From NCBI RefSeq assembly GCF_003790525.1, contig NZ_CP033635.1: a stretch of 64,000 nucleotides of DNA. One strand, given 5' to 3'. This document shows positions 3,945-56,333 of the stretch, in pieces (position 1 is the first letter of the stretch; every line of letters starts with the position of its first letter). Source of the stretch: Escherichia coli (lineage in GTDB: Bacteria > Pseudomonadota > Gammaproteobacteria > Enterobacterales > Enterobacteriaceae). A program made the translations under genes and the position numbers. A model generated the notes under the pieces. It was not told where the DNA came from and did no database searches. It saw nothing but the letters and a program-made list of their open reading frames with translations.

Positions 3945-3953
3945 GCAAATTGC

Positions 3954-5150
3954 ATGAAAACCTGGATATTTATCTGTATGGCCGTAGCAATATTGCTATG
4001 GTTCCTGAGTACGTTAAGGCGTAAGCCCAGCCAAAAAAAAGGCTGTATTGACGCCATTATACCTGCTTATAACGAAGGCCCGTGTCTGGCGCAGTCACTG
4101 GATAATCTGCTGCGTAACCCTTATTTTTGCCGGGTAATTTGCGTTAACGACGGCTCCACGGACAATACCGAAGCGGTCATGGCGGAAGTCAAACGCAAAT
4201 GGGGCGACCGCTTTATTGCCGTCACGCAAAAAAATACCGGTAAAGGTGGTGCGCTGATGAATGGCCTCAATTACGCCACCTGCGACCAGGTTTTTTTAAG
4301 TGATGCCGACACCTATGTTCCGCCCGATCAAGACGGAATGGGCTATATGCTGGCAGAAATAGAGCGCGGTGCTGATGCCGTAGGCGGCATTCCCTCTACT
4401 GCGTTGAAAGGCGCGGGTCTGTTACCGCACATCCGCGCGACCGTAAAGTTGCCGATGATTGTTATGAAGCGCACGCTACAGCAGCTCCTGGGCGGCGCAC
4501 CGTTTATTATCAGCGGTGCCTGCGGGATGTTCCGTACTGATGTATTGCGTAAGTTCGGTTTCTCTGATCGTACTAAAGTCGAAGACCTTGATCTCACCTG
4601 GACATTGGTGGCAAACGGCTATCGTATTCGGCAGGCGAATCGCTGCATCGTATACCCACAGGAATGCAACAGCCCGCGTGAGGAATGGCGTCGCTGGCGG
4701 CGTTGGATTGTGGGCTACGCGGTCTGTATGCGCCTGCATAAAAGACTTTTATTTAGCCGCTTCGGTATCTTCAGTATATTTCCTATGCTGTTGGTTGTGC
4801 TTTATGGCGTTGGGATTTATCTCACTACCTGGTTTAATGAATTCATCACCACCGGGCCGCATAGTGTGGTGTTGGCAATGTTTCCGCTTATCTGGGTCGG
4901 CGTAGTTTGTGTTATTGGTGCTTTTAGCGCCTGGTTTCATCGTTGCTGGTTGTTGGTGCCTTTAGCGCCGCTTTCCGTTGTGTATGTATTATTAGCTTAT
5001 GCCATCTGGATTATTTATGGACTTATTGCCTTTTTTACTGGACGCGAACCTCAGCGCGACAAACCCACCCGCTATTCCGCACTGGTGGAAGCGTCAACCG
5101 CTTATTCCCAACCTTCTGTCACAGGAACTGAAAAACTTTCTGAAGCTTAA
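3954..5150 (+). CDS. yaiP: membrane-embedded family-2 glycosyltransferase (synthase-like)
   Basis: 398 aa; N-terminal TM helix, IPAYNE, NDGSTD, SDADT (DxD), EDLD, REEWRRW (QxxRW-like) motifs, then C-terminal TM helices. Confidence 0.8.
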   Translation: MKTWIFICMAVAILLWFLSTLRRKPSQKKGCIDAIIPAYNEGPCLAQSLDNLLRNPYFCRVICVNDGSTDNTEAVMAEVKRKWGDRFIAVTQKNTGKGGALMNGLNYATCDQVFLSDADTYVPPDQDGMGYMLAEIERGADAVGGIPSTALKGAGLLPHIRATVKLPMIVMKRTLQQLLGGAPFIISGACGMFRTDVLRKFGFSDRTKVEDLDLTWTLVANGYRIRQANRCIVYPQECNSPREEWRRWRRWIVGYAVCMRLHKRLLFSRFGIFSIFPMLLVVLYGVGIYLTTWFNEFITTGPHSVVLAMFPLIWVGVVCVIGAFSAWFHRCWLLVPLAPLSVVYVLLAYAIWIIYGLIAFFTGREPQRDKPTRYSALVEASTAYSQPSVTGTEKLSEA

Positions 5151-5710: not shown

Positions 5711-6484
5711 ATGATAAAACGGACGTTATTAGCGGCGGCCATTTTTAGCACATTGCCCGCTTATGCCGGGTTAACTTCCATTACCGCGGGCTACGATTTT
5801 ACCGATTATTCTGGCGATCATGGCAATCGTAATTTAGCGTATGCTGAACTGGTGGCGAAAGTTGAAAACGCAACGCTGCTTTTTAATCTTTCCCAGGGGC
5901 GTCGTGATTATGAAACTGAACATTTCAATGCCACTCGCGGTCAGGGTGCGGTCTGGTATAAATGGAATAACTGGCTGACAACCCGAACGGGTATTGCCTT
6001 TGCGGATAATACGCCGGTCTTTGCCCGCCAGGATTTTCGTCAGGATATTAACCTGGCACTGTTGCCAAAAACGCTTTTCACGACCGGTTATCGCTACACT
6101 AAATATTACGATGATGTCGAAGTCGATGCCTGGCAAGGCGGCGTATCCCTCTATACTGGCCCGGTGATCTCCAGCTACCGCTATACCCATTATGACTCCA
6201 GCGATGCAGGTGGTAGTTACAGCAATATGATTTCCGTGCGTCTGAATGACCCGCGCGGCACTGGTTATACGCAACTATGGCTAAGCCGCGGAACAGGCGC
6301 TTACACCTATGACTGGACGCCAGAAACACGCTACGGCAGCATGAAGAGCGTCAGTCTGCAACGTATTCAACCGCTGACTGAGCAACTTAATCTCGGGCTG
6401 ACGGCAGGTAAAGTGTGGTACGACACCCCAACCGATGATTATAACGGTCTGCAACTTGCAGCCCATCTGACCTGGAAATTCTGA
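5711..6484 (+). CDS. yaiO: outer-membrane beta-barrel protein
   Basis: Signal peptide MIKRTLLAAAIFSTLPAYA, alternating aromatic-rich strands, C-terminal TWKF; starts 2 nt after yaiX stop. Confidence 0.8.
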   Translation: MIKRTLLAAAIFSTLPAYAGLTSITAGYDFTDYSGDHGNRNLAYAELVAKVENATLLFNLSQGRRDYETEHFNATRGQGAVWYKWNNWLTTRTGIAFADNTPVFARQDFRQDINLALLPKTLFTTGYRYTKYYDDVEVDAWQGGVSLYTGPVISSYRYTHYDSSDAGGSYSNMISVRLNDPRGTGYTQLWLSRGTGAYTYDWTPETRYGSMKSVSLQRIQPLTEQLNLGLTAGKVWYDTPTDDYNGLQLAAHLTWKF

Positions 6485-6592
6485 TTGCTTCTGCCGCCCG
6501 CTATCCGGGGCGGCCTTCCCTGTCGATTAGGCCCCTCTTTCCTTTTTGTTATCCGACTACATTCACCGGATAAATTTTATTCTCCAGTGTTA

Positions 6593-6644
6593 TATACTAT
6601 AGGGGGGTATGCATTGACATATAGCATACCCCCCTATAGTATAT
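6593..6644 (+). promoter_or_regulatory. frmRAB promoter with large palindromic operator (FrmR/RcnR-type TACT-G6 ... C6-AGTA)
   Basis: TATACTATAGGGGGGTATGC-attgacatata-GCATACCCCCCTATAGTATA; 20-bp arms enclosing a TTGACA hexamer. Confidence 0.6.
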
Positions 6645-6668
6645 TGCGTGCAGATGATGAGGTGCGAA

Positions 6669-6944
6669 ATGCCCAGTACTCCGGAAGAGAAGAAAAAGGT
6701 CCTTACTCGAGTTCGTCGTATTCGGGGGCAAATTGATGCTCTGGAACGGTCGCTGGAGGGTGATGCCGAATGCCGTGCCATACTCCAACAGATCGCTGCC
6801 GTTCGGGGCGCGGCTAACGGGCTGATGGCAGAAGTGCTTGAAAGCCATATCCGGGAAACGTTTGACCGAAATGACTGCTACAGCCGCGAAGTCAGCCAAT
6901 CCGTTGACGACACTATTGAACTGGTTCGTGCCTATCTTAAATAG
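6669..6944 (+). CDS. frmR: formaldehyde-responsive transcriptional repressor (CsoR/RcnR family)
   Basis: 91-aa product [29 protein letters not shown]...; upstream of frmA. Confidence 0.85.
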
Positions 6945-6948
6945 CTGA

Positions 6949-8088
<1,140 letters not shown>

Positions 8089-8179
8089 TTTCCCGCAGGT
8101 TTACCCGTCCAGTTCAGACGGGGTTCTTAATACTCTCCCCGGGCAGCCGTCCGGGGGATTAACCGTGAGATAATGACTG

Positions 8180-9013
8180 ATGGAACTCATTGAAAAACAT
8201 GCCAGCTTTGGCGGCTGGCAAAATGTGTATCGGCATTATTCCCAATCACTGAAATGTGAAATGAATGTCGGCGTCTATCTCCCACCAAAAGCCGGGAATG
8301 AAAAATTACCGGTGCTGTACTGGCTTTCGGGCCTGACCTGCAACGAGCAGAATTTCATTACTAAATCGGGGATGCAGCGTTACGCGGCTGAGCACAACAT
8401 TATTGTTGTTGCGCCGGACACCAGTCCGCGAGGCAGTCATGTCGCAGATGCCGACCGTTACGATCTCGGGCAAGGTGCCGGGTTTTACCTGAACGCAACG
8501 CAAGCGCCGTGGAATGAACATTACAAAATGTATGATTATATCCACAACGAGCTGCCGGATTTAGTGATGCAACATTTTCCGGCAACGACCAGAAAGTCTA
8601 TCTCAGGTCATTCTATGGGCGGACTGGGCGCGCTGGTGCTGGCGTTACGTAATCCAGATGAATATGTCAGCGTCTCGGCATTTTCGCCCATTGTCTCCCC
8701 ATCGCAAGTACCGTGGGGACAGCAAGCCTTTGCCGCATATCTTGGTGAAAATAAAGAGGCCTGGTTGGATTACGATCCGGTGAGCCTTATTTCACAAGGT
8801 CAACGCGTTGCGGAAATCATGGTTGATCAGGGGTTGAGTGATGATTTTTACGCAGAACAGCTGCGGACTCCAAATCTTGAAAAGATCTGCCAGGAGATGA
8901 ATATCAAGACGTTAATCCGTTATCACGAGGGTTATGATCACAGCTATTATTTTGTCTCCAGTTTTATTGGCGAGCATATTGCGTACCACGCCAATAAACT
9001 GAATATGCGTTAA
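8180..9013 (+). CDS. frmB: S-formylglutathione hydrolase (esterase D family)
   Basis: 277 aa; GHSMGG nucleophile elbow. Confidence 0.9.
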   Translation: MELIEKHASFGGWQNVYRHYSQSLKCEMNVGVYLPPKAGNEKLPVLYWLSGLTCNEQNFITKSGMQRYAAEHNIIVVAPDTSPRGSHVADADRYDLGQGAGFYLNATQAPWNEHYKMYDYIHNELPDLVMQHFPATTRKSISGHSMGGLGALVLALRNPDEYVSVSAFSPIVSPSQVPWGQQAFAAYLGENKEAWLDYDPVSLISQGQRVAEIMVDQGLSDDFYAEQLRTPNLEKICQEMNIKTLIRYHEGYDHSYYFVSSFIGEHIAYHANKLNMR

Positions 9014-9021
9014 TAATAGTG

Positions 9022-9126
9022 CACGACTGCCGGATGCGGCGTGAACGCCTTATCCGCCTACATTTCGCCTGGAAACCGTAGGCATGATAAGACTCGCAAA
9101 GCGTCGCATCAGGCATCTGCACACGA
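9022..9126. repeat. REP/BIME-type palindromic unit cluster
   Basis: gccggatgcggcgtgaacgccttatccgcctac followed by gcgtcgcatcaggcatctgcacacg. Confidence 0.6.
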
Positions 9127-9137
9127 TTTATCTATGT

Positions 9138-9677
9138 TTACCACATCAAATCATCAGGCACTTTGAAGTCAGCATACGGATCGTCTTCATCCTGCTCTTC
9201 GGCGCTGAGCGCGCTGTGCAACGCAATACTGCTGGCATCACGCTGAGCAATTTTATCGGCAACGCTGGCGGGAATAATGGCGTATTCACCCTCACTATTG
9301 TTATCGACCAACAAGCGGGCAATCGCCAGACGACCATTAATCAACTGCGTTTGCGTGAGCTTATCGACAAAAATCTTCTTAATCAGATTGCCGTCAGTGA
9401 AGTTAAAACCAATATCGCCATTGGCAATGGTAATTCGGTTCATTTCAATGAGCTGCTTCACCTGGGCTTTATATTCTTTCGCCAACGCCGCTTGTTTTTG
9501 TTGTTCGCTAAGCTGTTTATCACGCTCAAGCTGTGCCTTTTTATTTTCTTCTACCGCCGCCCGAGCTTCACGCGCCTGAACGCGCGATTTTTTCGCCGTT
9601 CTCTCGACCTTCGCCGCTTTTTTGCTGGTGACTAATCCTGCTTTGAGCAACTGCTCTTGTAAGGTAAGTTTTGCCAT
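9138..9677 (-). CDS. yaiL: DUF2058-family protein
   Basis: ORF 9138-9794; internal start MAKLTLQEQLLK gives 179 aa; lysine/glutamine-rich low-complexity N-terminal half. Confidence 0.7.
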   Translation of the reverse strand: MAKLTLQEQLLKAGLVTSKKAAKVERTAKKSRVQAREARAAVEENKKAQLERDKQLSEQQKQAALAKEYKAQVKQLIEMNRITIANGDIGFNFTDGNLIKKIFVDKLTQTQLINGRLAIARLLVDNNSEGEYAIIPASVADKIAQRDASSIALHSALSAEEQDEDDPYADFKVPDDLMW

Positions 9678-9769
9678 CTTTGTTTCCAAACCCGCTGAAT
9701 AATTTTTAGCGAGTATACCTGTAAACGCCGTAGGTGTATTGGGGGGAAGTCCCTTTCGCCCCTGCTTAA

Positions 9770-9802
9770 TAAGGCGCGTCAGGCATCTGCACACGGCTGC
9801 AT
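9770..9802. repeat. REP-like palindromic unit overlapping the mhpT stop
   Basis: gcgcgtcaggcatctgcacacggctgcat, near-copy of the unit at 9101-9125; encodes the mhpT C-terminus MQPCADA on the minus strand. Confidence 0.5.
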
Positions 9803-10990
9803 TCGTGATCTCCGGCTCATCAAAATAAACACTGCCAGGCCGGCAACAAGAATACCCGGCGCAGAAGCGGCCATTACGCCAACCGTGCCAGTGCCTAATG
9901 CCAGCATTTTCCCGGCCAGTAACGGACCGCTCATAGCCCCCAGACGCCCTACCGCCACGGCTGTTCCCACACCTGTTGCGCGGATCTGCGAACTGTAAAA
10001 CAACGGTGCCAGGGCATACAAAACGCTTTGCCCACCTGTCGCAAACAACCCCGCGACGAATCCCGCCAGCAACATACCGTTAAATGACGACACCGTTCCC
10101 AGCGCCAGCAGCGAAGCTAACATGCCGCTATAAATCAGTAGCGACATGGTTACTGGACGCAGCTTATCCATCAATGCGCCCAACATTAACGTCCCGCTTG
10201 CCGCCCCCATTTGCAGTGCAAACATCACCCCTGCCGCCTGCGATGGCTGGAATCCTTGCTCCACCAAAAGCAGCGGTAGCCAGTTGATCAACATGTAGAC
10301 CACCAGCAGAGTGAAGAAATAACACAACCACAGCAGCAGCGTCGCGGTAGCCGTTTCTGGCGCAAATAACGCACGCAGTGGTGGCGCGGCCTGTTTTTCG
10401 CCAGCGAACACCGCCGACTCCGGCAGCCAGCGCATTAACAGCGGCACCAGAATCAACGGCACCACACCACCTACCCAAAACACCGTTTGCCATGCTAAGT
10501 TTGCCCCCGCGAAACCCAGTGTCGCCGCCAGCGCCGCGCCAATGGGAACACCGCAATACATCAGGCTCACTGCCGTCCCACGAAAACGTGGACCCGCGGC
10601 TTCAGACGTCAGGGCGATCAGATTCGGCAACGCCGCCCCCAGCCCGACACCGGTCATCAGCCGCGCAAAGACCAGTGAGGGGAAATCCCAGGCAATCGCC
10701 GTTGCCAGTGAGAACAAACCAAACAGCGCAACTGAGCCAATCAAAATGCGCTTGCGACCATAACGGTCCGCCAGCATCCCGCCAACCAGCGCGCCGGGTA
10801 GCAAACCGAGTATTCCGGCGCTGAATATCCAGCCCATTTGCATTTTATCGAGTGCAAAAGCCTGGGCGATGCCACCCGCCGCAATGCCAGCCGCCTGAAG
10901 ATCCAGCCCTTCCATCAGAGCGACCAAAAAACAAAGCCCGATGGTCAGCATCAGGCGGGATGAAGATGATGAAGGGGTACGAGTCGACAT
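9779..10990 (-). CDS. mhpT: 3-hydroxyphenylpropionate MFS transporter
   Basis: ORF 9779-11059 trimmed to MSTRTPSSS start (403 aa); 12-TM MFS-like hydrophobicity. Confidence 0.85.
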   Translation of the reverse strand: MSTRTPSSSSSRLMLTIGLCFLVALMEGLDLQAAGIAAGGIAQAFALDKMQMGWIFSAGILGLLPGALVGGMLADRYGRKRILIGSVALFGLFSLATAIAWDFPSLVFARLMTGVGLGAALPNLIALTSEAAGPRFRGTAVSLMYCGVPIGAALAATLGFAGANLAWQTVFWVGGVVPLILVPLLMRWLPESAVFAGEKQAAPPLRALFAPETATATLLLWLCYFFTLLVVYMLINWLPLLLVEQGFQPSQAAGVMFALQMGAASGTLMLGALMDKLRPVTMSLLIYSGMLASLLALGTVSSFNGMLLAGFVAGLFATGGQSVLYALAPLFYSSQIRATGVGTAVAVGRLGAMSGPLLAGKMLALGTGTVGVMAASAPGILVAGLAVFILMSRRSRMQPCADA

Positions 10991-36855: not shown

Positions 36856-36897
36856 AGACTAAACCCAATATTCGGTTTCTTAACTTTGCGGTGCGCT

Positions 36898-38484
36898 ATG
36901 GCACATCCACCACGGCTGAATGACGACAAACCGGTTATCTGGACAGTATCGGTGACGCGCCTGTTCGAGCTGTTTCGCGATATCAGCCTCGAGTTTGATC
37001 ACCTGGCGAATATCACCCCTATTCAGCTTGGCTTTGAAAAAGCGGTGACCTACATCCGCAAGAAACTGGCAAACGAACGCTGCGATGCCATCATCGCTGC
37101 TGGCTCTAACGGCGCGTACCTGAAAAGCCGCCTGTCAGTGCCAGTTATTTTGATTAAACCGAGCGGCTACGATGTATTACAGGCACTGGCAAAAGCCGGA
37201 AAACTCACCTCTTCTATCGGCGTTGTCACTTATCAGGAAACTATTCCGGCACTGGTGGCGTTTCAAAAAACCTTTAATTTGCGCCTCGACCAACGTAGCT
37301 ACATTACCGAAGAAGACGCGCGCGGGCAGATTAACGAGCTGAAAGCTAACGGCACCGAAGCGGTGGTCGGCGCGGGGCTGATTACCGATCTGGCAGAAGA
37401 AGCCGGAATGACCGGAATTTTTATCTATTCCGCCGCCACCGTACGCCAGGCATTCAGCGATGCGCTGGATATGACGCGCATGTCGTTACGCCATAACACT
37501 CACGATGCCACCCGCAACGCCCTGCGTACTCGTTACGTGCTGGGCGATATGCTCGGTCAATCACCACAGATGGAACAGGTACGGCAGACTATTTTGCTGT
37601 ATGCCCGCTCCAGTGCGGCGGTGTTGATTGAGGGGGAAACGGGGACGGGCAAAGAGCTGGCGGCCCAGGCGATTCATCGGGAATATTTTGCCCGCCACGA
37701 TGCGCGACAGGGCAAAAAGTCGCATCCGTTTGTTGCCGTCAACTGCGGGGCGATTGCTGAATCTCTGCTGGAAGCGGAGCTGTTTGGCTATGAGGAAGGA
37801 GCGTTTACCGGCTCGCGACGTGGAGGTCGCGCCGGGCTGTTCGAAATTGCCCACGGCGGTACGCTGTTTCTGGATGAGATTGGCGAAATGCCGCTACCTT
37901 TGCAGACTCGCCTGTTACGGGTGCTGGAAGAAAAAGAGGTCACCCGCGTCGGCGGGCATCAGCCTGTTCCGGTGGATGTGCGAGTCATTAGCGCCACTCA
38001 CTGCAATCTGGAAGAAGATATGCGGCAAGGGGAGTTTCGCCGTGATCTGTTTTATCGGCTGAGTATTTTGCGTCTGCAATTGCCACCACTGCGCGAGCGG
38101 GTGACGGATATTCTGCCGCTGGCGGAAAGCTTTTTGAAAGTGTCTCTGGCGGCGCTCTCCGCCCCGTTTTCTGCCGCATTACGCCAGGGGTTACAGGCAA
38201 GCGAAACCGTGCTGGTGCACTACGACTGGCCGGGCAATATTCGTGAACTGCGCAATATGATGGAGCGACTGGCGCTGTTTTTAAGTGTGGAACCGACGCC
38301 GGATTTAACGCCGCAATTTTTGCAGCTGCTACTGCCGGAACTGGCGCGCGAGTCGGCGAAAACTCCCGCTCCACGCTTACTGACACCACAACAGGCACTG
38401 GAGAAATTTAATGGCGATAAAACAGCAGCGGCGAATTATTTAGGTATCAGCCGGACGACGTTCTGGCGGCGGCTGAAAAGCTGA
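36898..38484 (+). CDS. prpR: sigma-54-dependent transcriptional activator of prp operon
   Basis: ORF 36886-38484 trimmed to [15 protein letters not shown] (528 aa); AAA+ motifs [24 protein letters not shown]-terminal HTH. Confidence 0.9.
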
Positions 38485-38522
38485 ACTGCCGAATGCAGCG
38501 CGAACGCTTTATCCGGCATAAA
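38485..38522. repeat. REP palindromic unit
   Basis: ctgccgaatgcagcgcgaacgctttatccggcat. Confidence 0.5.
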
Positions 38523-38584
38523 TTTCAATAGATGATGATCACCGATAAACTTACGCATCGGGGATGTTTACATAGGATTCAGAA

Positions 38585-38860
38585 TTACTTCTTCTTATAA
38601 ATATTTGCCGTGCCGTGGATCTTATTGTCAGTTTGACCGGAGGTCAGTACCAACACATCAGCCCCTTTTTCATCGGCTTTTTTGATCAAATCTTCTTTCG
38701 CATCTGCGGTCGACATTTCATTACTGGTTGAAATATCACCTATTTTTTCATATTGCGATGCAACCTTTTCAAATTCCGCTTTGGTCATTAATTCTGCGGC
38801 ATAGACATTGGTAACGGCAAACGCTAACGCACCGACTAACATTTTAGAGATTATTTTCAT
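38585..38860 (-). CDS. yahO: small periplasmic DUF1471 (YdgH/BhsA/McbA-like) protein
   Basis: 91 aa with signal peptide [21 protein letters not shown]. Confidence 0.8.
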
Positions 38861-39006
38861 ATTACGGCTCCAGAGTTGTTATCACACTATCACCCACCCA
38901 CATTATTGGGTTGATTAATAATTAGTTCAGTCAGGGCATAAACGCCAGTAACCGGAAATAAGACACTTTGTGATCTCTCTCGCACCCGATTATTTTTGGT
39001 AGAAAT

Positions 39007-39678
39007 ATGATGAAGTTACTTCACTTATTTATGGATGAAATCACTATGGATCCTTTGCACGCCGTTTACCTGACCGTAGGACTGTTCGTGATTACTTTTT
39101 TTAATCCGGGAGCCAATCTCTTTGTGGTAGTACAAACCAGCCTGGCTTCCGGTCGACGCGCAGGGGTGCTGACCGGGCTGGGCGTGGCGCTGGGCGATGC
39201 ATTTTATTCCGGGTTGGGTTTGTTTGGTCTTGCAACGCTAATTACGCAGTGTGAGGAGATTTTTTCGCTTATCAGAATCGTCGGCGGCGCTTATCTCTTA
39301 TGGTTTGCGTGGTGCAGCATGCGCCGCCAGTCAACACCGCAAATGAGCACACTACAACAACCGATTAACGCCCCCTGGTATGTCTTTTTTCGCCGCGGAT
39401 TAATTACCGATCTCTCTAACCCGCAAACCGTGTTATTTTTTATCAGTATTTTCTCAGTAACATTAAATGCCGAAACACCAACATGGGCACGTTTAATGGC
39501 CTGGGCGGGGATTGTGCTCGCATCAATTATCTGGCGAGTCTTTCTTAGTCAGGCGTTTTCTTTGCCCGCAGTGCGTCGTGCTTATGGGCGTATGCAACGC
39601 GTTGCCAGTCGGATTATTGGTGCAATTATTGGTGTATTCGCGCTACGCCTGATTTACGAAGGGGTGACGCAGCGGTGA
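39007..39678 (+). CDS. yahN: LysE/RhtB-family amino-acid exporter
   Basis: 223 aa, 6-TM hydrophobic profile. Confidence 0.8.
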   Translation: MMKLLHLFMDEITMDPLHAVYLTVGLFVITFFNPGANLFVVVQTSLASGRRAGVLTGLGVALGDAFYSGLGLFGLATLITQCEEIFSLIRIVGGAYLLWFAWCSMRRQSTPQMSTLQQPINAPWYVFFRRGLITDLSNPQTVLFFISIFSVTLNAETPTWARLMAWAGIVLASIIWRVFLSQAFSLPAVRRAYGRMQRVASRIIGAIIGVFALRLIYEGVTQR

Positions 39679-39694
39679 GCAGATAATTTACTCT

Positions 39695-39940
39695 CTACGT
39701 AATCAACCTGATTTGCCGGATCCCGACCATCGGCGATGATAGCCCCCGTAATGCGTGGTCCTTATTTCCGATAAGTTTACTTGAGTCTTTAGCTTCCCAT
39801 TTCAGCCCACTCTCCCCTGTGTGGGCTTTTTTCATTGCTCTGACCCGTCCTGAATAGCCAAACAATGGCAATGTTTCACTTTGCAGGGATGATAATAAGG
39901 GGATCTGATTCAGAAGAGTTATGAAAAGTTGGACCGCCAT
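39695..39940 (-). CDS. yahM: small uncharacterized protein (81 aa)
   Basis: ORF 39695-39970; internal start MAVQLFITLLNQ gives the 81-aa length I recall for yahM; weak evidence. Confidence 0.35.
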   Translation of the reverse strand: MAVQLFITLLNQIPLLSSLQSETLPLFGYSGRVRAMKKAHTGESGLKWEAKDSSKLIGNKDHALRGLSSPMVGIRQIRLIT

Positions 39941-40353
39941 CGAGGCCTCGAACCCCGTACCATACAACAATCCTGGTTGTCGTCTGCTCTTCCTGATGAG
40001 CTAATGGCGGTTTTTGATATGAGCCTTACAGCATATTTTCTGTCAGGCTTGAGTGCGATGCGTAAGATACAGAAAAGCCCCCACACAAACATGATGGAAT
40101 TATGATTTTTTTCATATGAATGTCAACCCACACATTCACAAAACATCTGCATGAGATCATTTTTTTATACACCGTATAGCTGCGAAACCACTGCTGATGC
40201 TTTTTTAAGCGAAGCGTCGCCGATCACAACAAAATATCGGCGAAAAAGGCGGTGGAATGCCATTTGGCATACGGATATACAGATGAAATGATCACCTGCT
40301 TTGCGATTCACTCTCTGGTGGAATAACAACTCGCAGGTGGAACCCTTTCTGAA

Positions 40354-41169
40354 CTAAAGAGTGTAGCGGATTTTAACGTGCTTATTTACAGGATAATATC
40401 TGTCACCTAACTCCTGCACTCTATTAGATATCCATTCATTTAATCGCGCATCATCTCTGTATGTTTTTACGTCCAGAACAGAGAGCAATAACCTCACCAG
40501 TGATTCAGGAAAAACAGGGTAGATATTTTTTAAGTGTAATAATAATCCATGCGCAAGCGCCTGCTTAATGGGCGCGTCGGTCTCCGGGATAGACGACATT
40601 TCGCGAAGCCATTTTTCCACATGCATACACTCTTTCCCTTTAGGGAAAAGTCTCAGCAAAGGCATATGGTGTTCAAGAAGAATACATTTGCAATCTGTTC
40701 GCACTGAATCGATAAACTGCTCTAATTTCTTAAGCCCGGTAAAGCGTCCAGCCTGCACATTTGCTTTAATATCAAGAAACGCATCATCCTGGTCATATAC
40801 CCAAACTGTCCCTTTTTGATTTTCAAGTATGCGAAAAACAAACTTAACCGGGTGATCAGGGTAATCCATCCAGTCATAAAACCCAGGGAAATCATTAAAC
40901 TGCACATTTATGGTGAGTGCGTTATCGTCTGACCACTCACAGTCTCGTACGGCAGCCATGAGATGAATGAGTTTGTCGTCATCGACTAAATCATCACGAC
41001 AATCATAAGGATAATCATAATATTGTTTAATCAAAACCTTGAATATATCGACACAGGAGACCAGGGAGCTTTTGATATCCTCTGATAACTGATTGTTTTT
41101 AACAGTATTAAGTATGCTTTGTTGCGTATATGGCATCAAATTATTGTGCGGAGCTTTTAATGATATCAT
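40354..41169 (-). CDS. yahL: uncharacterized 271-aa protein in AT-rich segment
   Basis: Long ORF with no recognisable motifs; low GC relative to neighbours. Confidence 0.7.
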   Translation of the reverse strand: MISLKAPHNNLMPYTQQSILNTVKNNQLSEDIKSSLVSCVDIFKVLIKQYYDYPYDCRDDLVDDDKLIHLMAAVRDCEWSDDNALTINVQFNDFPGFYDWMDYPDHPVKFVFRILENQKGTVWVYDQDDAFLDIKANVQAGRFTGLKKLEQFIDSVRTDCKCILLEHHMPLLRLFPKGKECMHVEKWLREMSSIPETDAPIKQALAHGLLLHLKNIYPVFPESLVRLLLSVLDVKTYRDDARLNEWISNRVQELGDRYYPVNKHVKIRYTL

Positions 41170-41411
41170 CGCGATCTCTCTTAAATAAAAATAAACGTCG
41201 CAGATAATAAAGCCCTGATTAAACCAGGCACTATCAGAAATCGCTCATAACTAACGTGTGAAGTATTGTGTACTGGAGGGAGTTAATTTAACAATTTGAA
41301 TTTACGTTATAGGTTTTACTGCTACTTTGATATTATTTCGCTCTCCTTAACTAAAAAGTTAAGTGGAGAGCGAAGTTAATATGTTAAACCACAGGATATT
41401 TATTAATTGTT

Positions 41412-42461
41412 TCAGTCTGTTAGTGTGCGATTATCGATAACAAAACGATATTTCACATCACCTCGCAGCATTCGCTCATAGGCTTCATTAATTTGATCGG
41501 CCCGAATCATCTCTATATCAGCCACGATGTCATGTTCGGCGCAAAAATCGAGCATCTCCTGTGTTTCTGGAATGCCGCCAATCATAGAGCCGGCTATCGC
41601 ACGGCGTTTCATGATCAGGTTGAAAACTTCCGGTGATTTATGCGGTGTCGCAGGCGCACCAACCAGCGTCATGGTGCCATCACGCTTCAGCAAGGTGGTA
41701 AAATCGTCGAGATTATGTGGCGCAGCTACTGTATTCAAAATGAAATCGAAACTCTTGAGATGAGCCGCCATCTCATCGGCATTGCGTGAGTTAACAACTT
41801 CATCGGCCCCCAGGGCTTTTGCCGCTTCGCGTTTTGCCTCAGAAGTGGTAAATGCCACCACATGCGCCCCCATCGCGTGGGCCAGCTTAATCCCCATATG
41901 TCCCAGACCGCCGATGCCGACCACGCCCACTTTTTTTCCCGGCCCGGCCTGCCAGTGACGTAGCGGCGAATACGTGGTGATCCCTGCACACAACAAAGGT
42001 GCCACCGCCGCCAGCTGCTCTTGCGGGTGACGAATACGCAGAACATATCGCTCATGAACGACGATCTGTTGTGAGTAGCCGCCCAGAGTATGGCCCGGTT
42101 CGTCCGGCGTCGGCGAGTTATAGGTGCCGGTCATGTGATCACAGTAGTTTTCCAGCCCGTCTTCACACTCTTCGCAATGTTTACAACTGTCGACAATGCA
42201 GCCGACACCGACCAGATCGCCCGGCGCATGTTTTTCTACCTGATCACCAACGGCTACCACACGCCCCACAATTTCATGACCCGGCACACAGGGGTAAACC
42301 GTCCCCGCCCACTCGGAACGGACCTGGTGGATATCGGAATGGCAGACGCCACAGTAAGCGATTTCGATTTTGACATCATGCGGTCCCGGTTCACGCCGGG
42401 TGATATCCATCGGTTCCAGCGGTTGTTTAGCGGAATATGCACCAACAGCTTTGATCTTCAT
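41412..42461 (-). CDS. yahK: Zn-dependent NADPH aldehyde reductase (MDR/cinnamyl-ADH family)
   Basis: 349 aa; GHEIVG, CxxCxxCxxxxxxxC structural-Zn motif (CKHCEECEDGLENYC), GIGGLG Rossmann motif. Confidence 0.9.
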   Translation of the reverse strand: MKIKAVGAYSAKQPLEPMDITRREPGPHDVKIEIAYCGVCHSDIHQVRSEWAGTVYPCVPGHEIVGRVVAVGDQVEKHAPGDLVGVGCIVDSCKHCEECEDGLENYCDHMTGTYNSPTPDEPGHTLGGYSQQIVVHERYVLRIRHPQEQLAAVAPLLCAGITTYSPLRHWQAGPGKKVGVVGIGGLGHMGIKLAHAMGAHVVAFTTSEAKREAAKALGADEVVNSRNADEMAAHLKSFDFILNTVAAPHNLDDFTTLLKRDGTMTLVGAPATPHKSPEVFNLIMKRRAIAGSMIGGIPETQEMLDFCAEHDIVADIEMIRADQINEAYERMLRGDVKYRFVIDNRTLTD

Positions 42462-42731
42462 TGTGTTTACTCCTGATTAGCTATGTGTATTTGGCGATGC
42501 CTGATATGTCATCGCGGCAAAACGCGTCCATTGAATATAGCCAATATTTAAACCACCCGATCCAGCCCCAACATGCCGCGAGCCTGAATGAAACAGAGCA
42601 GCAACGTTCCCCATAAGGCGAGCGCCTATAAGTGTGATATTTGCTATCCGTAAAAGACAAAAATCGGCAAAACTGATGATATTTTCACGTAGACAAATAG
42701 TTATCTACACAACGTTGGTAATGACTCCAAC

Positions 42732-43235
42732 TTATTGATAGTGTTTTATGTTCAGATAATGCCCGATGACTTTGTCATGCAGCTCCACCGATTTTGAGAA
42801 CGACAGCGACTTCCGTCCCAGCCGTGCCAGGTGCTGCCTCAGATTCAGGTTATGCCGCTCAATTCGCTGCGTATATCGCTTGCTGATTACGTGCAGCTTT
42901 CCCTTCAGGCGGGATTCATACAGCGGCCAGCCATCCGTCATCCATATCACCACGTCAAAGGGTGACAGCAGGCTCATAAGACGCCCCAGCGTCGCCATCG
43001 TGCGTTCACCGAATACGTGCGCAACAACCGTCTTCCGGAGCCTGTCATACGCGTAAAACAGCCAGCGCTGGCGCGATTTAGCCCCGACATAGCCCCACTG
43101 TTCGTCCATTTCCGCACAGACGATGACGTCACTGCCCGGCTGTATGCGCGAGGTTACCGACTGCGGCCTGAGTTTTTTAAGTGACGTAAAATCGTGTTGA
43201 GGCCAACGCCCATAATGCGGGCTGTTGCCCGGCAT
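42732..43235 (-). CDS. insB: IS1 transposase InsB
   Basis: 167 aa [26 protein letters not shown]... Confidence 0.9.
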
Positions 43236-43429
43236 CCAACGCCATTCATGGCCATATCAATGATTTTCTGGTGCGTACCGGGTTGAGAAGCGGTGTAAGT
43301 GAACTGCAGTTGCCATGTTTTACGGCAGTGAGAGCAGAGATAGCGCTGATGTCCGGCGGTGCTTTTGCCGTTACGCACCACCCCGTCAGTAGCTGAACAG
43401 GAGGGACAGCTGATAGAAACAGAAGCCAC
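43154..43429 (-). CDS. insA: IS1 InsA
   Basis: 91 aa [43 protein letters not shown]; overlaps insB in the -1 frame. Confidence 0.9.
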
Positions 43430-43614
43430 TGGAGCACCTCAAAAACACCATCATACACTAAATCAGTAAGTTGGCAGCATCACCCACAACGTCAATAAGG
43501 GCATATTCTTCAAAGATAATGTCCATTTCTGCCGACACACTCATACTCAGGCCGCCCCACTCCCTGGGGCTTAAATCTCTTACTGTTCACCGTTGCAGAT
43601 ATATCAAGTTCGTA

Positions 43615-51361: not shown

Positions 51362-52294
51362 ATGAACTCAATTTTTACCGAAGAGAATCTGTTGGCATTT
51401 ACTACCGCTGCGCGTTTTGGCAGTTTCAGTAAAGCAGCAGAAGAGTTGGGTTTAACCACTTCCGCCATTAGCTACACCATCAAGCGAATGGAAACAGGGC
51501 TGGATGTGGTGCTGTTCACTCGCAGTACCCGAAGCATTGAGTTAACGGAGTCCGGGCGTTATTTTTTCCGCAAAGCTACCGACCTGCTGAATGATTTTCA
51601 CGCCATCAAACGCAGCATCGATACTATTTCGCAGGGTATAGAAGCACGGGTGCGCATTTGTATTAACCAACTGCTTTATACGCCCAAACACACCGCACGC
51701 TTATTACAGGTACTGAAAAAGCAGTTTCCAACCTGCCAGATTACCGTGACGACCGAAGTGTATAACGGCGTCTGGGATGCGATTATTAATAATCAGGCGA
51801 ATATTGCTATCGGCGCGCCCGACACACTGCTGGACGGCGGCGGCATTGATTACACGGAGATTGGCGCGATTCGCTGGGCTTTTGCTATCGCCCCGGATCA
51901 CCCGTTAGCCTTTGTGCCGGAACCCATCGCCGAAAGCCAGCTGCGTCTCTATCCTAATATCATGGTGGAAGACACCGCGCATACGATTAATAAAAAAGTG
52001 GGCTGGTTGCTGCATGGGCAGGAGTCGATTCTGGTGCCAGATTTCAACACCAAATGTCAGTGCCAGATTTTAGGTGAAGGAATTGGTTTTTTGCCGGATT
52101 ACATGGTCCGTGAGGCGATGGCGCAATCCCTGCTGGTTACCCGACAAATCCATAATCCGCGCCAGGATTCACGCATGTTACTCGCAACTCAGCATTCTGC
52201 TACGGGTCAGGTGACGCAGTGGATTAAAAAGCAATTTGCGCCAAATGGCATATTAACGGGGATCTATCAGGATTTACTGCATCGGGAGAATTAA
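51362..52294 (+). CDS. yahB: LysR-family transcriptional regulator
   Basis: 310 aa; N-terminal HTH LLAFTTAARFGSFSKAAEELGLTTSAISYTIKRME. Confidence 0.85.
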   Translation: MNSIFTEENLLAFTTAARFGSFSKAAEELGLTTSAISYTIKRMETGLDVVLFTRSTRSIELTESGRYFFRKATDLLNDFHAIKRSIDTISQGIEARVRICINQLLYTPKHTARLLQVLKKQFPTCQITVTTEVYNGVWDAIINNQANIAIGAPDTLLDGGGIDYTEIGAIRWAFAIAPDHPLAFVPEPIAESQLRLYPNIMVEDTAHTINKKVGWLLHGQESILVPDFNTKCQCQILGEGIGFLPDYMVREAMAQSLLVTRQIHNPRQDSRMLLATQHSATGQVTQWIKKQFAPNGILTGIYQDLLHREN

Positions 52295-52335
52295 TCGCTG
52301 CCAACCTCCCGATGCGCTGTGAATAGCGGTTTACA

Positions 52336-53424
52336 TCAACCACCTGCTTTCATTACCCATTCAGAGATAAATTTATTACCCGGTACTGGCGGAGAGTACA
52401 AATAGCCCTGCAAAAAGTGAACTCCTTTGCCGATCATTAAATCCGCCTGCTCCTGGGTTTCTACCCCTTCCGCCACGATACTCAGACCAGGCTTACGCGC
52501 CAGTTCGACAATATTGTCCACAATATGACCGGATATTTCGTCCACGCTCGCCATTTGCACAAATGACTTATCGATCTTAATAAAATCGACCGGGAACGCC
52601 TGCAAGTAACGATAGGTCGCATAACCCGTACCAAAGTCATCCAGCGCAAAGGTAATGTTGTGCTGATGAAGGCTGTCAAATATCGCTCTGGCTTCTGGCG
52701 TTACCGGAATAGGGTTACGTTCCGTCAGCTCAAGAACCAGTTTGATTTTATCGTTACCTAATTTCTTAACCAGGTTCAGACACTCTTTTTCAAATCCTGC
52801 GGCCAAAAAACAACCCGCCGAGACGTTGATGCCAATATGGAAATTGTCCGGCAGCAAATGTTTTACCGGCATCAGAATATCCGCAGTCTGTTTCATCAAC
52901 TGGCGAGTCATTATGACGATAAGACCAGATGACTCCGCCAGAGGAATAAACTGATCCGGTGGGATAATTCCCGTTTGTGGATGTTCCCAGCGGACAAGCA
53001 CCTCACAGCCCGTCAGTACCCCAGTCTGCGCGCAGAAAACCGGTTGGATCCACGGTTTAAATTCATGGTTTTCCAACGCCAGACTGATGGCTTCAGGCGT
53101 GACGATATGGTGATAGTGATTATCATTAATATATTTGTGACTATTATTACCCGTGGCGGATATGATCTCCGGATTGTACTGAAAGAAAATATCCCGCCAG
53201 AAAGTAATATCGCTCTGAATCCCCAGTTTCTCAAAGAGCTGTTTCTTTTGATGTGAAATGGTCTTTGCACTGCGATTTCTGTACTGTGATATTTCTGTTA
53301 CAGACATTCCCTGCATCAGCAGCTTGAGTAGCAGTCGTTCTTTCTCGGATACGCTACCAGGCAATGACAAATGAACCGTTGTACCGAACTCTTGCAGAAA
53401 AACACGAAAATCACATGAATTCAT
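52336..53424 (-). CDS. pdeL: c-di-GMP phosphodiesterase with LuxR-type HTH and EAL domain
   Basis: ORF 52336-53430; LuxR HTH LSEKERLLLKLLMQGMSVTEISQYRNRSAKTISHQKK; EAL-domain motifs ELTE and DDFGTG. Confidence 0.85.
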   Translation of the reverse strand: MNSCDFRVFLQEFGTTVHLSLPGSVSEKERLLLKLLMQGMSVTEISQYRNRSAKTISHQKKQLFEKLGIQSDITFWRDIFFQYNPEIISATGNNSHKYINDNHYHHIVTPEAISLALENHEFKPWIQPVFCAQTGVLTGCEVLVRWEHPQTGIIPPDQFIPLAESSGLIVIMTRQLMKQTADILMPVKHLLPDNFHIGINVSAGCFLAAGFEKECLNLVKKLGNDKIKLVLELTERNPIPVTPEARAIFDSLHQHNITFALDDFGTGYATYRYLQAFPVDFIKIDKSFVQMASVDEISGHIVDNIVELARKPGLSIVAEGVETQEQADLMIGKGVHFLQGYLYSPPVPGNKFISEWVMKAGG

Positions 53425-54299
53425 GAACACACCTTTTATCTTTTATCGCTGTTCAGTATGAGTGATTACCTGTGGATTCCTGAGCACACATAAGGGGTAA
53501 CCATAAACATTAGCGATGCCATACGTATAACATCCCACATCACTATCAAGAAGATTATCTTTACCTCTGATGCTCGCTCAAAAACAGTTACGCTAAATAC
53601 CTTAAAAAGGTAATCACAAGTCAAACTCAGGAGATAATCACGCAAGAATGCAATATTAAAATTCAGATACTCATTTTTGGTAATAAAGAAGTAGTTGGAC
53701 TATTTCGATATTTATAATTTCCCACTACGTATTGACGCCCATTCATGAGTAAAGGCGCATTATATGAATTTAACAATCCAGATCAACTGAAAATACCTCA
53801 ACCTCATAAACACATAGCGTCAACATTCAATGACATAATGAGTAAAGATGTTGGTTATGCATACACGTCATTACTCTATGCCTATCCCTTAACAACCTGC
53901 TTTTTAAGACTGAATCCATTCAGCAATAGATAGCCAACATTATAACAATGACAATAAAAACAATATTTAAAACAATCAATAAAATATCAGACACAGACAA
54001 TTAAACCTTAAACAACAAACGGTTACATTGATTTTAGTTGATTTGCGCTACGCGTTCCCCATGAATAAAGCGTCATTTCAAATTAGCACCAATATTTACA
54101 TTAAATAAGACTAAGCTTATTGAACATTCACAACAGTCCAAACGTAGGTTTTGGGCTTCAATAGTTCTTTTCTTTTTTATTATCTGTTGCCTGGCAATCA
54201 TCAATCGATACTAAGGGCTTAACTGTACAGATATAACGTATCAAGAGGTAAGAGAAACCGCGCCATATGCAGACATGGCGCGGTTTTATGCAAAAACAA

Positions 54300-56333
54300 T
54301 CACGCGTCCGGGAACATCACGCTATGGCCCGGCGCTTCACGATGGAGATGGATAAAGTTAAGATGCCGCTCGTACTGGTCAAGAATATCGGTGATCACCT
54401 GCTCTTTGCTGTAGTCCATCAGGTCGTTGCCCTGGCTGCCTTCTAACAGGAAGGTTTCCAGCCGGTAGTAGGTCGATTTACCGCTACGTGCGCGGTAGGT
54501 AAAGCCCGGCACCGAATATTGCTGCGGCCAAATCTGATAGACAAAGTTTTGCTCTTCGCCCATATGCACCAACAAATCCAGATGCCCCAACTGTTGTCCC
54601 TCTTCCGGCGGCAGGCTTTTTAGCTCCACGTACGCGCCGCGCAACCGCAACTCCTGCGCCACTTCTTCCATTGCCGGGTAACAGACCGTCTCCATCATCT
54701 GTTTAGTGTAACGCGTGCCCGGATAATTCATCAGGCGCGAGAGACGTTTTTTCCAGCTCAGGCGATCCTGAAGCCCCAGCGGTCGCGGTGCGGTATCGCG
54801 GTTGGCACTTTCACGGCGGTAATCTTCTACCTTCAGAGATTTATACAACCCCGCCATCACGAAGAAGATCACAAAGCTGAACGGCAGGCCCATAATCACC
54901 GTGGTGTTTTGCAGCGCGGATATCCCGTTGGTCATCAGCATGCCGAGCGTCAGCAGGCCAATCGCCACCGACCAGAAGACGCGCAGCCAGCCGGGGGCGT
55001 CGCTGTTGATATCTTTAAGCTGCGAGGTGAAATTCCCCAGCACCAGCGCCCCGGAGTCCGCCGAGGTCACATAAAACAGCAGGCCAGTAATGGTGGCGAC
55101 GGAGGCGCTAAAGGTAAACGCCGGATACTGCGCCAGCAGGCTGTAGAAGCCGCGCTCCGGATGGACCATCGCTTCCTCGGCAAATGCCGCGCCGCCGTGG
55201 ATGATTTCATACAGCGCGCTATTGCCGAACACCGAGAGCCATAACAGCGTGAAGGTAAACGGAATAATCAACGTGCCCAGCACGAACTGGCGAATGGTAC
55301 GCCCACGCGAGATACGCGCCAGGAACAAGCCAACAAACGGCGACCATGCCACCCACCATGCCCAGAAGAAGAGCGTCCAGTTATTCATCCACTCAACCGG
55401 ACGGTCGAAGGCAAAACTGTTGAGCGTCATGCCCATAAAGCGATTCATATAGTCGCCAACGTTCAGCACCAGCGCATTAAGCAGGAACGAGGTGTCGCCC
55501 ATAAACAGCACGAAAAGGATCAATCCCAGCGCCAGCGCAACGTTAAGTTCCGATAACACACGAATCCCCTTATCGACACCGGAGGTGACAGAGATCGTGG
55601 CGATGATCACCGACAAGGCGATCAGTGCCGCTTTCGCCGCCATTGAATCGGGAATATCAAACAGTACGCTCAAGCCATAGTTAAGCTGCACCACACCGAT
55701 ACCGAGCGTAGTGGCAATACCGAAGATGGTGCCGATCACCGCTGCAATATCCACTGAGTGACCTATCGGCCCGTTAATCCGTTTACCGAAGATCGGGTAC
55801 AGCGCCGAGCGGATGGTGAGCGGCAAATTATAACGATAACTAAAGTATCCGAGCGCCATGCCCATCAGCGCATACATCGACCAGCCGGTTAAGCCGTAGT
55901 GAAACAGCGTCCAGACCATCGCCTGACGCGCGGCCTCAATCGTCTGACCCGCGCCTTCCGGCGGCTGCATATACTGCGTTACCGGTTCGGCTACGGAGAA
56001 GAACATCAGGTCGATACCGATCCCGGCAGCAAACAGCATCGCCGCCCAACTCAGCAGACTGAATTCCGGTTTTGATTGTTCTGGCCCGAGCTTCACCGAA
56101 CCAAAACGCGAACAAGCGATGCAGACCACAAAGACAATATAGAGCGTTGCCGCCAGCAGATAGTACCAACCGAAGGTTTTAGAGACCCAGTCCAGCGTGC
56201 GTCCAATCCACAGGGCCGAGAAGTCGCGAAACAGGATCGTTGTCAGGGAAAACAACAAAATCAGTCCGGCGGAAGTGTAAAACACCACCGGATTGATTTT
56301 GTCCTTTTCCCTGCTGTGTGAAAGGTCTGTCAT
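54300..56333 (-). CDS. betT: choline transporter (BCCT family)
   Basis: 677 aa, 12-TM core plus cytoplasmic C-terminal extension. Confidence 0.92.
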   Translation of the reverse strand: MTDLSHSREKDKINPVVFYTSAGLILLFSLTTILFRDFSALWIGRTLDWVSKTFGWYYLLAATLYIVFVVCIACSRFGSVKLGPEQSKPEFSLLSWAAMLFAAGIGIDLMFFSVAEPVTQYMQPPEGAGQTIEAARQAMVWTLFHYGLTGWSMYALMGMALGYFSYRYNLPLTIRSALYPIFGKRINGPIGHSVDIAAVIGTIFGIATTLGIGVVQLNYGLSVLFDIPDSMAAKAALIALSVIIATISVTSGVDKGIRVLSELNVALALGLILFVLFMGDTSFLLNALVLNVGDYMNRFMGMTLNSFAFDRPVEWMNNWTLFFWAWWVAWSPFVGLFLARISRGRTIRQFVLGTLIIPFTFTLLWLSVFGNSALYEIIHGGAAFAEEAMVHPERGFYSLLAQYPAFTFSASVATITGLLFYVTSADSGALVLGNFTSQLKDINSDAPGWLRVFWSVAIGLLTLGMLMTNGISALQNTTVIMGLPFSFVIFFVMAGLYKSLKVEDYRRESANRDTAPRPLGLQDRLSWKKRLSRLMNYPGTRYTKQMMETVCYPAMEEVAQELRLRGAYVELKSLPPEEGQQLGHLDLLVHMGEEQNFVYQIWPQQYSVPGFTYRARSGKSTYYRLETFLLEGSQGNDLMDYSKEQVITDILDQYERHLNFIHLHREAPGHSVMFPDA

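Follow-up and report, generated by a model that had tools for sequence, protein, structure and literature searches.

The GC-poor span between yahN and yahK, positions 39695-41411 of the window analysed here (64,000 nucleotides of the Escherichia coli contig NZ_CP033635.1, assembly GCF_003790525.1), is, as far as we can judge with fair confidence for the explanation taken as a whole, a composite of three unrelated parts that lie at a variable junction past the conserved prpR-yahO-yahN block: a cassette that holds the orphan gene yahL, a hairpin, and a non-coding unit annotated as yahM. The core of this last unit, an 81-nt tRNA-like element with a strong promoter, escaped the preliminary description of this DNA, which was made from the letters alone and saw in yahM and yahL one island of low guanine and cytosine (GC) content and of horizontal origin, with a stem-loop upstream. 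As an observation that description stands in part, since the low GC of yahL and the hairpin are found and the low GC of yahM only weakly; as an interpretation it is supported for the foreign origin of yahL and for a hairpin at the yahK 3' end, and not for yahM as part of a coding island. The low GC and the hairpin are ordinary features, and both are now accounted for.

Base composition of the span

By open reading frame (ORF) calling and annotation the window covers the E. coli prpR-yahO-yahN-yahM-yahL-yahK region, and a 1733-bp query of the region matches 5176 of 5426 complete E. coli genomes. The GC content of the span is 40.7% against 52.5% for the window, which places it in the first percentile of 1717-bp windows. 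The low GC and deviant codon use supposed for yahL are borne out (GC 39.6%, and 40.1% at third codon positions, GC3), and among 47 non-overlapping ORFs of the window with at least 200 aa this gene has the lowest codon fit; the upstream neighbour yahK is normal in composition (53.6% and 54.3%). The case of yahM is weak: its GC of 46.7% and GC3 of 51.2% stand beside 49.4% and 50.0% for yahN, which is itself atypical, has the second-worst codon fit among the same ORFs and is therefore a poor 'normal' comparator. Two other stretches of the window have a GC content as low as that of the yahL region, at ~2150-4600 and ~52200-54900, where the GC of 1717-bp windows falls to 0.40 (at ~2601) and 0.397 (at ~52551).

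A variable slot past the prpR-yahO-yahN block

The outgroup loci compared here were recovered by way of YahN; a contig search with YahM peptides gave two loci only. The order prpR-yahO-yahN is common to Citrobacter and Salmonella bongori, and the sequence that comes after yahN differs between species. The yahM unit adjoins yahN in every Escherichia locus examined, while its other side varies. The edge of the variable slot is formed by a short intergenic piece:

40127-40353, no strand assigned: fast-evolving spacer from the yahL stop to the yahM promoter.

This spacer is 65% identical to its counterpart in a divergent Escherichia lineage (L008), which is the neutral level, and synteny with E. 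albertii and with another Escherichia sp. (L031/L032) stops at ~40148. In E. albertii the yahM unit is almost directly followed by yahJ, and there is no yahL at this site. Beside that yahJ (L030, 6210-6287) we found a degenerate copy of the yahK hairpin together with a 23-nt remnant of the yahK 3' end, and therefore yahK was deleted there and not inserted in E. coli. A different content is seen in L031, where positions 5955-10633 hold a Zorya-type ZorD helicase gene (PADLOC E = 0) and an EH-signature gene; this pair lies directly upstream of the promoter of the tRNA-like element, in the slot taken by yahL and yahK in E. coli. The same locus carries a gene for an 878-aa protein without family match between yahO and yahN. 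In L008 it is ABC-transporter genes (1-2623), and not yahJ, that precede yahK; variation thus extends to the far side of yahK. Next to the tRNA-like element the variable DNA is on the promoter side, away from the 3' end.

yahL as an accessory cassette

Three features describe the yahL part of the span:

40354-41169, minus strand: yahL coding sequence, an AT-rich orphan gene of 271 aa.

40341-41175, no strand assigned: 835-bp segment that is present or absent as a whole, made of the yahL ORF with 13 nt beyond its 3' end and 6 nt before its 5' end.

41189-41248, minus strand: conserved block upstream of yahL, with the core ATGAGCGATTTCTGATAGT followed by TATTAT.

The preliminary description found no recognisable catalytic motif in YahL, and this is confirmed by the lack of any significant match in Pfam, NCBIfam, PHROGs and PADLOC. 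Nor does YahL have a match among the sequences of solved structures, and a tblastn search against 50,697 phage records found none. The predicted structure is a confident alpha/beta plus helical fold that has no fold match. A weak Pfam match to SDH_protease, with E = 0.003 and 17 bits where the cut-off is 31, was dismissed as noise. Both a word-indexed search and an exhaustive one, over 1.84 billion representatives, returned only E. coli sequences or fragments and one full-length distant relative, P0027, which is 26% identical, stands in an unrelated genomic context and is encoded by a gene of 31.5% GC against a background of ~47% in its own host. A further candidate at 51% identity (P0010) was discarded, being E. 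coli itself in an error-rich assembly, and a 19-nt motif common to the region far upstream of P0027 was set aside since taken alone it is at chance level (E = 4.5).

A relative of YahL exists at another site of E. albertii. The ORF in question (L030, 4163-4789) lies between yahO and yahN, shares 25% identity over 170 aa with YahL (pairwise E = 1e-12) and probably has its true start near 4729, giving ~188 aa; PADLOC has no match for it or for P0027. The 60 nt upstream of this ORF are 78% identical to positions 41189-41248, while the proteins share only 25%. The block 41189-41248 has hardly changed among the E. coli lineages or in L008 and is kept in strains without yahL; it would probably serve as the promoter or operator region of the cassette. 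A terminator-like site at 41228-41214 was set aside as it is not conserved.

Selection on yahL can be followed in the divergent Escherichia lineage (L008/L012), which has the gene at the same site. The ratio of nonsynonymous to synonymous rates (dN/dS) is 0.16 at dS 0.68 for yahL, against 0.019 for yahK and 0.048 for yahN in the same comparison. The gene yahL is a real one under purifying selection that evolves fast, and, to go by its presence at the same site in an L008-type lineage at dS ~0.68, it is nonetheless old. It is not a core gene: the ORF is present in 4075 of the 5426 complete E. coli genomes (75%) and missing from 1351. About 1150 genomes keep the flanks and cover 52% of the region, and the two of them that were examined (BRG214 and AZ146) lack exactly 40341-41175. 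The BLAST junctions against BRG214 fall at 40340 and 41176, and AZ146 is in the same state. From the names of the strains that lack yahL or have a truncated yahM (ED1a, 83972, AZ146) we presume that these belong to phylogroup B2. In published work YahL is a signature protein confined to E. coli and Shigella, and the published expression of yahL is <1 ppm.

As a genomic island the slot shows atypical composition, patchy distribution and a content that differs in E. coli, E. albertii, L008 and L031; no integrase ORF was found between yahN and yahJ, and no direct repeat at the junctions of the 835-bp segment. The foreign origin proposed for yahL is thus supported by its composition and codon use, by its near-restriction to Escherichia, by the low GC of the P0027 gene, by its absence from 25% of genomes and by the relative that E. 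albertii carries elsewhere. In this yahL acts like a small accessory cassette that occupies a variable slot, with no mobility machinery visible. This AT-rich single-gene cassette, of foreign or unknown origin, is barely expressed in the laboratory and easily lost. As a guess of low confidence, YahL might be an accessory protein of the conflict type, given that in a sister species the same slot holds a Zorya defence system.

One could suppose instead that it was within Escherichia that yahL came into being, or diverged, out of AT-rich sequence that was non-coding or decayed, its low GC reflecting weak selection and low expression. The orphan distribution, the very low expression, the relaxed constraint and the failure to find mobility genes or junction repeats would all agree with such an origin. 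We nevertheless consider it unlikely, since a full-length relative of 26% identity exists in an unrelated context and is compositionally foreign there as well, the E. albertii relative, located elsewhere, has a homologous upstream block, prediction gives a confident alpha/beta plus helical fold, and dN/dS is well under 1.

The yahM reading frame

At the other end of the span the annotated gene yahM overlaps the tRNA-like element. The features of this unit, in the order of its transcription, are as follows:

40099-40126, minus strand: yahM promoter, TTGACA-16-CATAAT, a near-consensus sigma-70 promoter with 11/12 matches in a promoter scan.

40011-40092, minus strand: 82-nt leader with two predicted hairpins.

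39930-40010, minus strand (40010-39930): 81-nt tRNA-like element, called by ARAGORN as Ser-GGA and overlapping the yahM start codon.

39954, minus strand: equivalent of the dominant published leader 3' end, at G57 of the element, giving an RNA of ~139 nt.

39695-39940, minus strand: annotated 81-aa yahM ORF, with its ATG in the 3' acceptor strand of the element and a GAGG Shine-Dalgarno in the T-loop.

39804-39832, plus strand: hairpin that has a T6 run and resembles a terminator, lying within the yahM ORF but on the other strand.

The yahM frame is not preserved. O157 has a stop at codon 12, the yahL-less strains BRG214 and AZ146 have a -1 frameshift (labelled 'frameshifted' by PGAP), L008 has a stop plus +4/-1/-1 indels, with a stop and indels likewise in L009 and L012, and in L031 the equivalent of positions 39714-39921 is deleted while promoter, leader and element are retained. 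There is no excess of synonymous change either: between the window and K-12 we counted 7 nonsynonymous changes, R>W and A>P among them, and 1 synonymous, the counts being small. YahM has no family match in Pfam or NCBIfam. With an ORF broken in three lineages and for the most part gone from a fourth, the reading of yahM as part of a protein-coding island is left unsupported; yahM is probably a non-coding RNA and not a protein gene. Another possible frame, a leaderless 57-aa ORF at 39919-40092 on the minus strand that starts with an ATG at the inferred transcription start and runs through the element, was rejected because of a stop at codon 4 in L008.

Were yahM a genuine small-protein gene, the element would be a part of its 5' untranslated region (UTR), for example a translational or Rho-dependent attenuator. 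This would suit the 81-aa ORF, which the window and K-12 have intact, as do many clusters under the name 'protein YahM', and likewise the GAGG 5 nt upstream of the ATG; Adams et al., too, took the region for a 5' UTR and an ORF with premature Rho termination. It is rendered improbable by the nonsense codon of O157, the frameshift of the yahL-less strains, the multiple lesions of L008 and the deletion of L031, by the 7:1 ratio of nonsynonymous to synonymous changes, by the lack of a matching family, by Rho termination inside the ORF, which is typical for untranslated RNA, and by the position of start codon and Shine-Dalgarno inside helices of the tRNA-like fold.

Promoter and transcript of the yahM unit

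The inferred transcription start is the A at 40092, 82 nt upstream of the 5' end of the element, and the yahM 5'-UTR clone of Adams et al. 2021 (PMC7815308) begins with ATGTTTGTGTGGGG, which is position 40092. The promoter was confirmed in a Reg-Seq preprint, where it is repressed by IHF. It is 97% identical in L008 and L031, and the leader is 84-88% identical across species. Among the five distinct leader sequences most changes are compatible with pairing and one pair is changed on both sides, which is not significant.

The dominant 3' end of the leader in supplementary files 1 and 3 of Adams et al. 2021 lies at K-12 345390 and is seen in all three growth conditions; next to a ratio of 1.85, a yes/no column has 'Yes' for this end, and we read that entry as a Rho call. 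The same study reports a Rho termination region inside the yahM ORF at K-12 345585 (~ window 39759, p = 3e-33) and a more than 2-fold higher expression of a yahM fusion in rhoR66S, printed as 'yhaM', while only a yahM construct exists. In the fold of the 139-nt species (40092-39954) G57 falls one nt past an alternative closing helix formed by AUGGUACGG, the variable region that is specific to the chromosome. Within 39954-40010 on the minus strand, this region is similar to AUGGCGG, the 3' acceptor strand of the element itself, and is able to pair with the 5' acceptor strand.

Downstream of the element the unit meets yahN, and yahM-yahN is listed as a convergent excludon in MG1655. On the plus strand, the hairpin at 39804-39832 (-14.8 kcal/mol, z = -3.1) is most likely the yahN terminator; a run of 43 nt shows no change against L008, the terminator part alone is covered by a weak Rfam match, and the automatic terminator scan missed it because its loop is longer than 8 nt. 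The listing as an excludon and the Rho termination inside yahM are what the unit has in common with known convergent excludons and Rho-terminated antisense transcripts. Unlike in these, the antisense partner here begins with a conserved tRNA-like element, and an effect on yahN is a candidate only.

Structure and ancestry of the tRNA-like element

Folded at minimum free energy (MFE), the element is a cloverleaf: the acceptor stem has 7 bp (CCGCCAU/AUGGCGG), the D stem has 4 bp, and the T arm reads CGGGG-UUCGAGG-CCUCG and is followed by UCCA. Acceptor, D arm, a T arm whose loop is of the T-psi-C type and a CCA at the 3' end are thus all in place. The anticodon arm is abnormal when set beside that of a canonical tRNA, which has a 5-bp stem, a 7-nt loop with U33 and a purine at 37, and one nt between the D and anticodon stems: the ARAGORN loop reads CAGGAUU, so that 33 is A and 37 is U, there are five nt between the D and anticodon stems, and in the MFE fold this arm is a 7-bp stem with a 6-nt loop.

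The stems are identical in alignment to those of argN copies of phages and plasmids, with which the element shares 76-86% identity overall. It is 85% identical to an equally long, degenerate 81-nt 'tRNA-OTHER' within the ileZ-argN-argO arrays of phiP27 and of the plasmid pHX138.261ft_1, and an extra GAAGAGCAGACGACA stretch is shared with that form only. In PhiR49_2 the middle element of the array is a functional tRNA-Arg(UCG). The 5' half of the chromosomal element is common to 14 prophage contigs, and its own version of the anticodon arm and variable region was absent from 2.9 million viral contigs. Judged by this similarity, the element appears to be derived from the argN tRNA of lambdoid phages. 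Like the argN of lambdoid and Stx phages (phiP27, PhiR49_2, pHX138.261ft_1; in the middle of ileZ-argN-argO, in the late region), it has essentially the same acceptor stem, D arm, T arm and CCA end. It differs from them in being solitary, with no surrounding phage genes, a strong promoter of its own, a fixed locus on the yahN side and no variation among the Escherichia examined. The phage arrays are located between the Q or methylase genes and the stx or lysis genes, and the chromosomal element is not so placed. There is no other tRNA in 38000-43000, and no similarity to phage DNA or protein was found outside the element.

Other tRNA-derived sequences offer a comparison. The pseudo-tRNA remnants at K-12 prophage att sites (ptwF, pawZ, pauD) are tRNA-derived, phage-related and skipped by standard tRNA annotation, as is the element here, and they are partial 3' duplications of host tRNA genes left by integration that are not known to have a promoter. 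In contrast to them the element is full length, of phage type, promoter-driven and strongly constrained. The bacterial Y RNA YrlA, tmRNA and the thrS operator carry a tRNA-shaped fold inside a longer non-decoding transcript, and the same is seen here; the element differs from these in having no Rfam family match, no Ro-binding stem and no tag frame, and in a mapped 3' end that lies in the T stem. We found no mention of a tRNA-like element near yahL-yahM in the searchable literature, which is incomplete.

Conservation of the element

All 81 positions of the element are identical in L008, E. albertii and L031/L032, while its flanks differ by 12-40% among the four lineages, the third codon positions of yahN are only 60-66% identical to the other lineages and the spacer upstream of the yahM promoter 65%. 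Against L008 the invariant run reaches from 40014 to 39924 (91 nt) and is the second longest in the 5.8-kb locus. Within E. coli the 100-nt block that contains the element is present in 5168 of 5426 genomes, and it is at least 99% identical in 4751 records; the one variant of the element seen in O157 turns a G.U pair into G-C. It appears that the element is under very strong purifying selection and that it is for this reason the functional core of the yahM unit.

Could it be an inert relic of a lambdoid prophage, a pseudo-tRNA whose invariance is due to chance, a low local mutation rate or recent recombination, and whose promoter is incidental? The failure of the Rfam tRNA model, the abnormal anticodon arm, the lack of a mapped mature CCA end and the equally degenerate copies held by phages could be cited for it. 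We regard this as very unlikely, given the 81/81 identity in four lineages between flanks that differ by 12-40%, the rank of the 91-nt invariant run against L008, an O157 variant that keeps the pairing, and the retention of promoter and element together where the downstream sequence was deleted. A recombination tract, moreover, would need to match the element independently in each lineage.

The hairpin at the yahK 3' end

Between yahL and yahK the features are:

41339-41372, minus strand: stem-loop in the yahK 3' UTR, 34 nt long, beginning 39 nt after the stop codon, with 14 bp, a 2-nt bulge and a UUUU loop.

41332-41334, minus strand: equivalents of the published yahK mRNA 3' ends, 5-7 nt past the stem.

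41412-42461, minus strand: yahK coding sequence, for an NADPH-dependent aldehyde reductase.

The hairpin is present exactly as the preliminary description spelled it, only that it ends at 41372 and not, as stated there, at 41374. As RNA of the yahK strand, in a 90-nt context, it has a free energy of -23.2 kcal/mol (z = -5.3), and none of 200 shuffles was as stable. It is conserved in every E. coli lineage examined, and its stem is perfect in the yahL-less strains. Two changes in the outer stem of L008 give U.G wobbles and keep pairing only on the minus-strand RNA. Term-seq data of Adams et al. 2021 (PMC7815308, supplementary files 1 and 3) place yahK 3' ends at K-12 344011 and 344013, with printed 61-nt contexts that contain the hairpin, and a Rho termination region follows at K-12 344049 (~ window 41296).

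With ends this close to the stem, the suggestion that the hairpin acts as a yahK terminator was essentially right. No U-tract comes after the stem, where the sequence continues with AAAUAAUAUC, and the terminator scan does not report the hairpin. It looks more like a stem-loop that protects a 3' end than like a classical intrinsic terminator, because of this missing U-tract and the Rho region that follows. RNA polymerase would read past the hairpin and Rho would terminate within roughly the next 40-80 nt, after which 3' exonucleases may trim the transcript back to the stem, which would then protect the yahK message. The stable hairpin soon after the stop codon, the ends a few nt downstream and the Rho region next to them are the same as for stem-loops that stabilise the trimmed 3' ends of Rho-terminated mRNAs; from intrinsic terminators the yahK hairpin differs by the absence of a U-tract, the mechanism of trimming being our inference.

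That the palindrome works as a leader structure of yahL, or in the DNA as the operator of a dimeric regulator, is highly doubtful, for while it is a near-perfect inverted repeat that lies 170 nt upstream of the yahL ATG and without a U-tract is no textbook terminator, published 3' ends lie 5-7 nt past it, it is kept and perfect in strains without yahL, the L008 changes keep pairing only as yahK-strand RNA, and the E. albertii remnant is linked to the yahK 3' remnant at a site that has no yahL.

The yahM unit weighed as a whole

For the yahM unit the mechanism we propose would run as follows. The near-consensus sigma-70 promoter, repressed by IHF, would drive an 82-nt leader and an 81-nt element domesticated from lambdoid argN; the untranslated yahM transcript would run antisense towards yahN and be stopped by Rho, and a stable 5' RNA of ~139 nt would remain. 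As to function, the element may quite possibly, in a judgement that stops just short of probable, be the structured part of a small RNA that acts in trans or binds protein, where it would mimic a tRNA for tRNA-binding enzymes. A cis module that sets the processing and the Rho read-through of the antisense transcript, and in this way modulates yahN as in an excludon, is also possible, if rather doubtful. Put together, and only tentatively, a lambdoid tRNA may have been captured in the ancestor of Escherichia as the core of a promoter-driven non-decoding RNA and kept without change through the genus, where it would act as a tRNA mimic, either a decoy or ligand for tRNA-binding enzymes or toxins, or a processing or anti-termination module that tunes the antisense transcription into yahN.

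Several points weigh against the composite explanation and against its non-coding RNA in particular. Only ARAGORN calls the element: there is no match to the Rfam tRNA model (RF00005) at E<=5 over 4.3 kb or at E<=10 over 141 nt, and the Rfam scans of the region gave sub-threshold noise only (REP-like naRNA4, terminator-only and snoRNA matches). The invariance of the element covers four lineages, E. fergusonii and the named cryptic clades not among them. The element never varies, and hence covariation can speak for none of its folds. Near the encoded CCA (K-12 345414) there is no listed 3' end, and the main mapped end is inside the T stem, which is indirect evidence as the Term-seq of Adams et al. 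was not designed for tRNAs; because the dominant end is at G57 and none is listed near the CCA, the RNA probably does not mature as a tRNA does, and in vivo its form may be other than the cloverleaf. All Term-seq positions in the window were inferred by coordinate transfer from K-12. The 81-aa ORF, with GAGG 5 nt before its ATG, is intact in K-12 and in the window and may be translated in particular strains. On the yahL side, the Zorya neighbour of the slot is circumstantial, and no role can be assigned to YahL from sequence or fold.

Neighbouring genes and other elements

The genes and elements around the span are these:

36886-38484, plus strand: prpR.

39007-39678, plus strand: yahN, an amino-acid exporter gene.

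38460-38518, minus strand: REP-like palindrome in the gap between prpR and yahO.

42718-43484, between yahK and yahJ: IS1 copy with insA/insB on the minus strand and both terminal inverted repeats.

The minus strand carries yahO, yahM, yahL, yahK, the IS1 copy and yahJ. A K-12-like genome has no IS1 at the yahK-yahJ site. The REP-like palindrome gave a naRNA4 match below threshold (27 bits against a cut-off of 59.5), and Adams et al. 2021 (PMC7815308) report a strong 3' end (K-12 346858) at this place; the palindrome is probably the terminator of yahO.

Significance

A paper of 2024 proposes yahL as a conserved quantitative PCR marker for E. coli and Shigella. With the distribution found here, such a yahL assay would miss 1351 of the 5426 complete E. 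coli genomes. The gene yahM is listed as a 'completely uncharacterized' y-gene of K-12. If our reading of the yahM unit is true, the y-ome would be rid of one mis-annotated protein, and a conserved RNA gene, whose promoter is known and whose ends are mapped, would be gained in its place. It would also be a clear case of a host keeping a phage tRNA for a non-decoding role.

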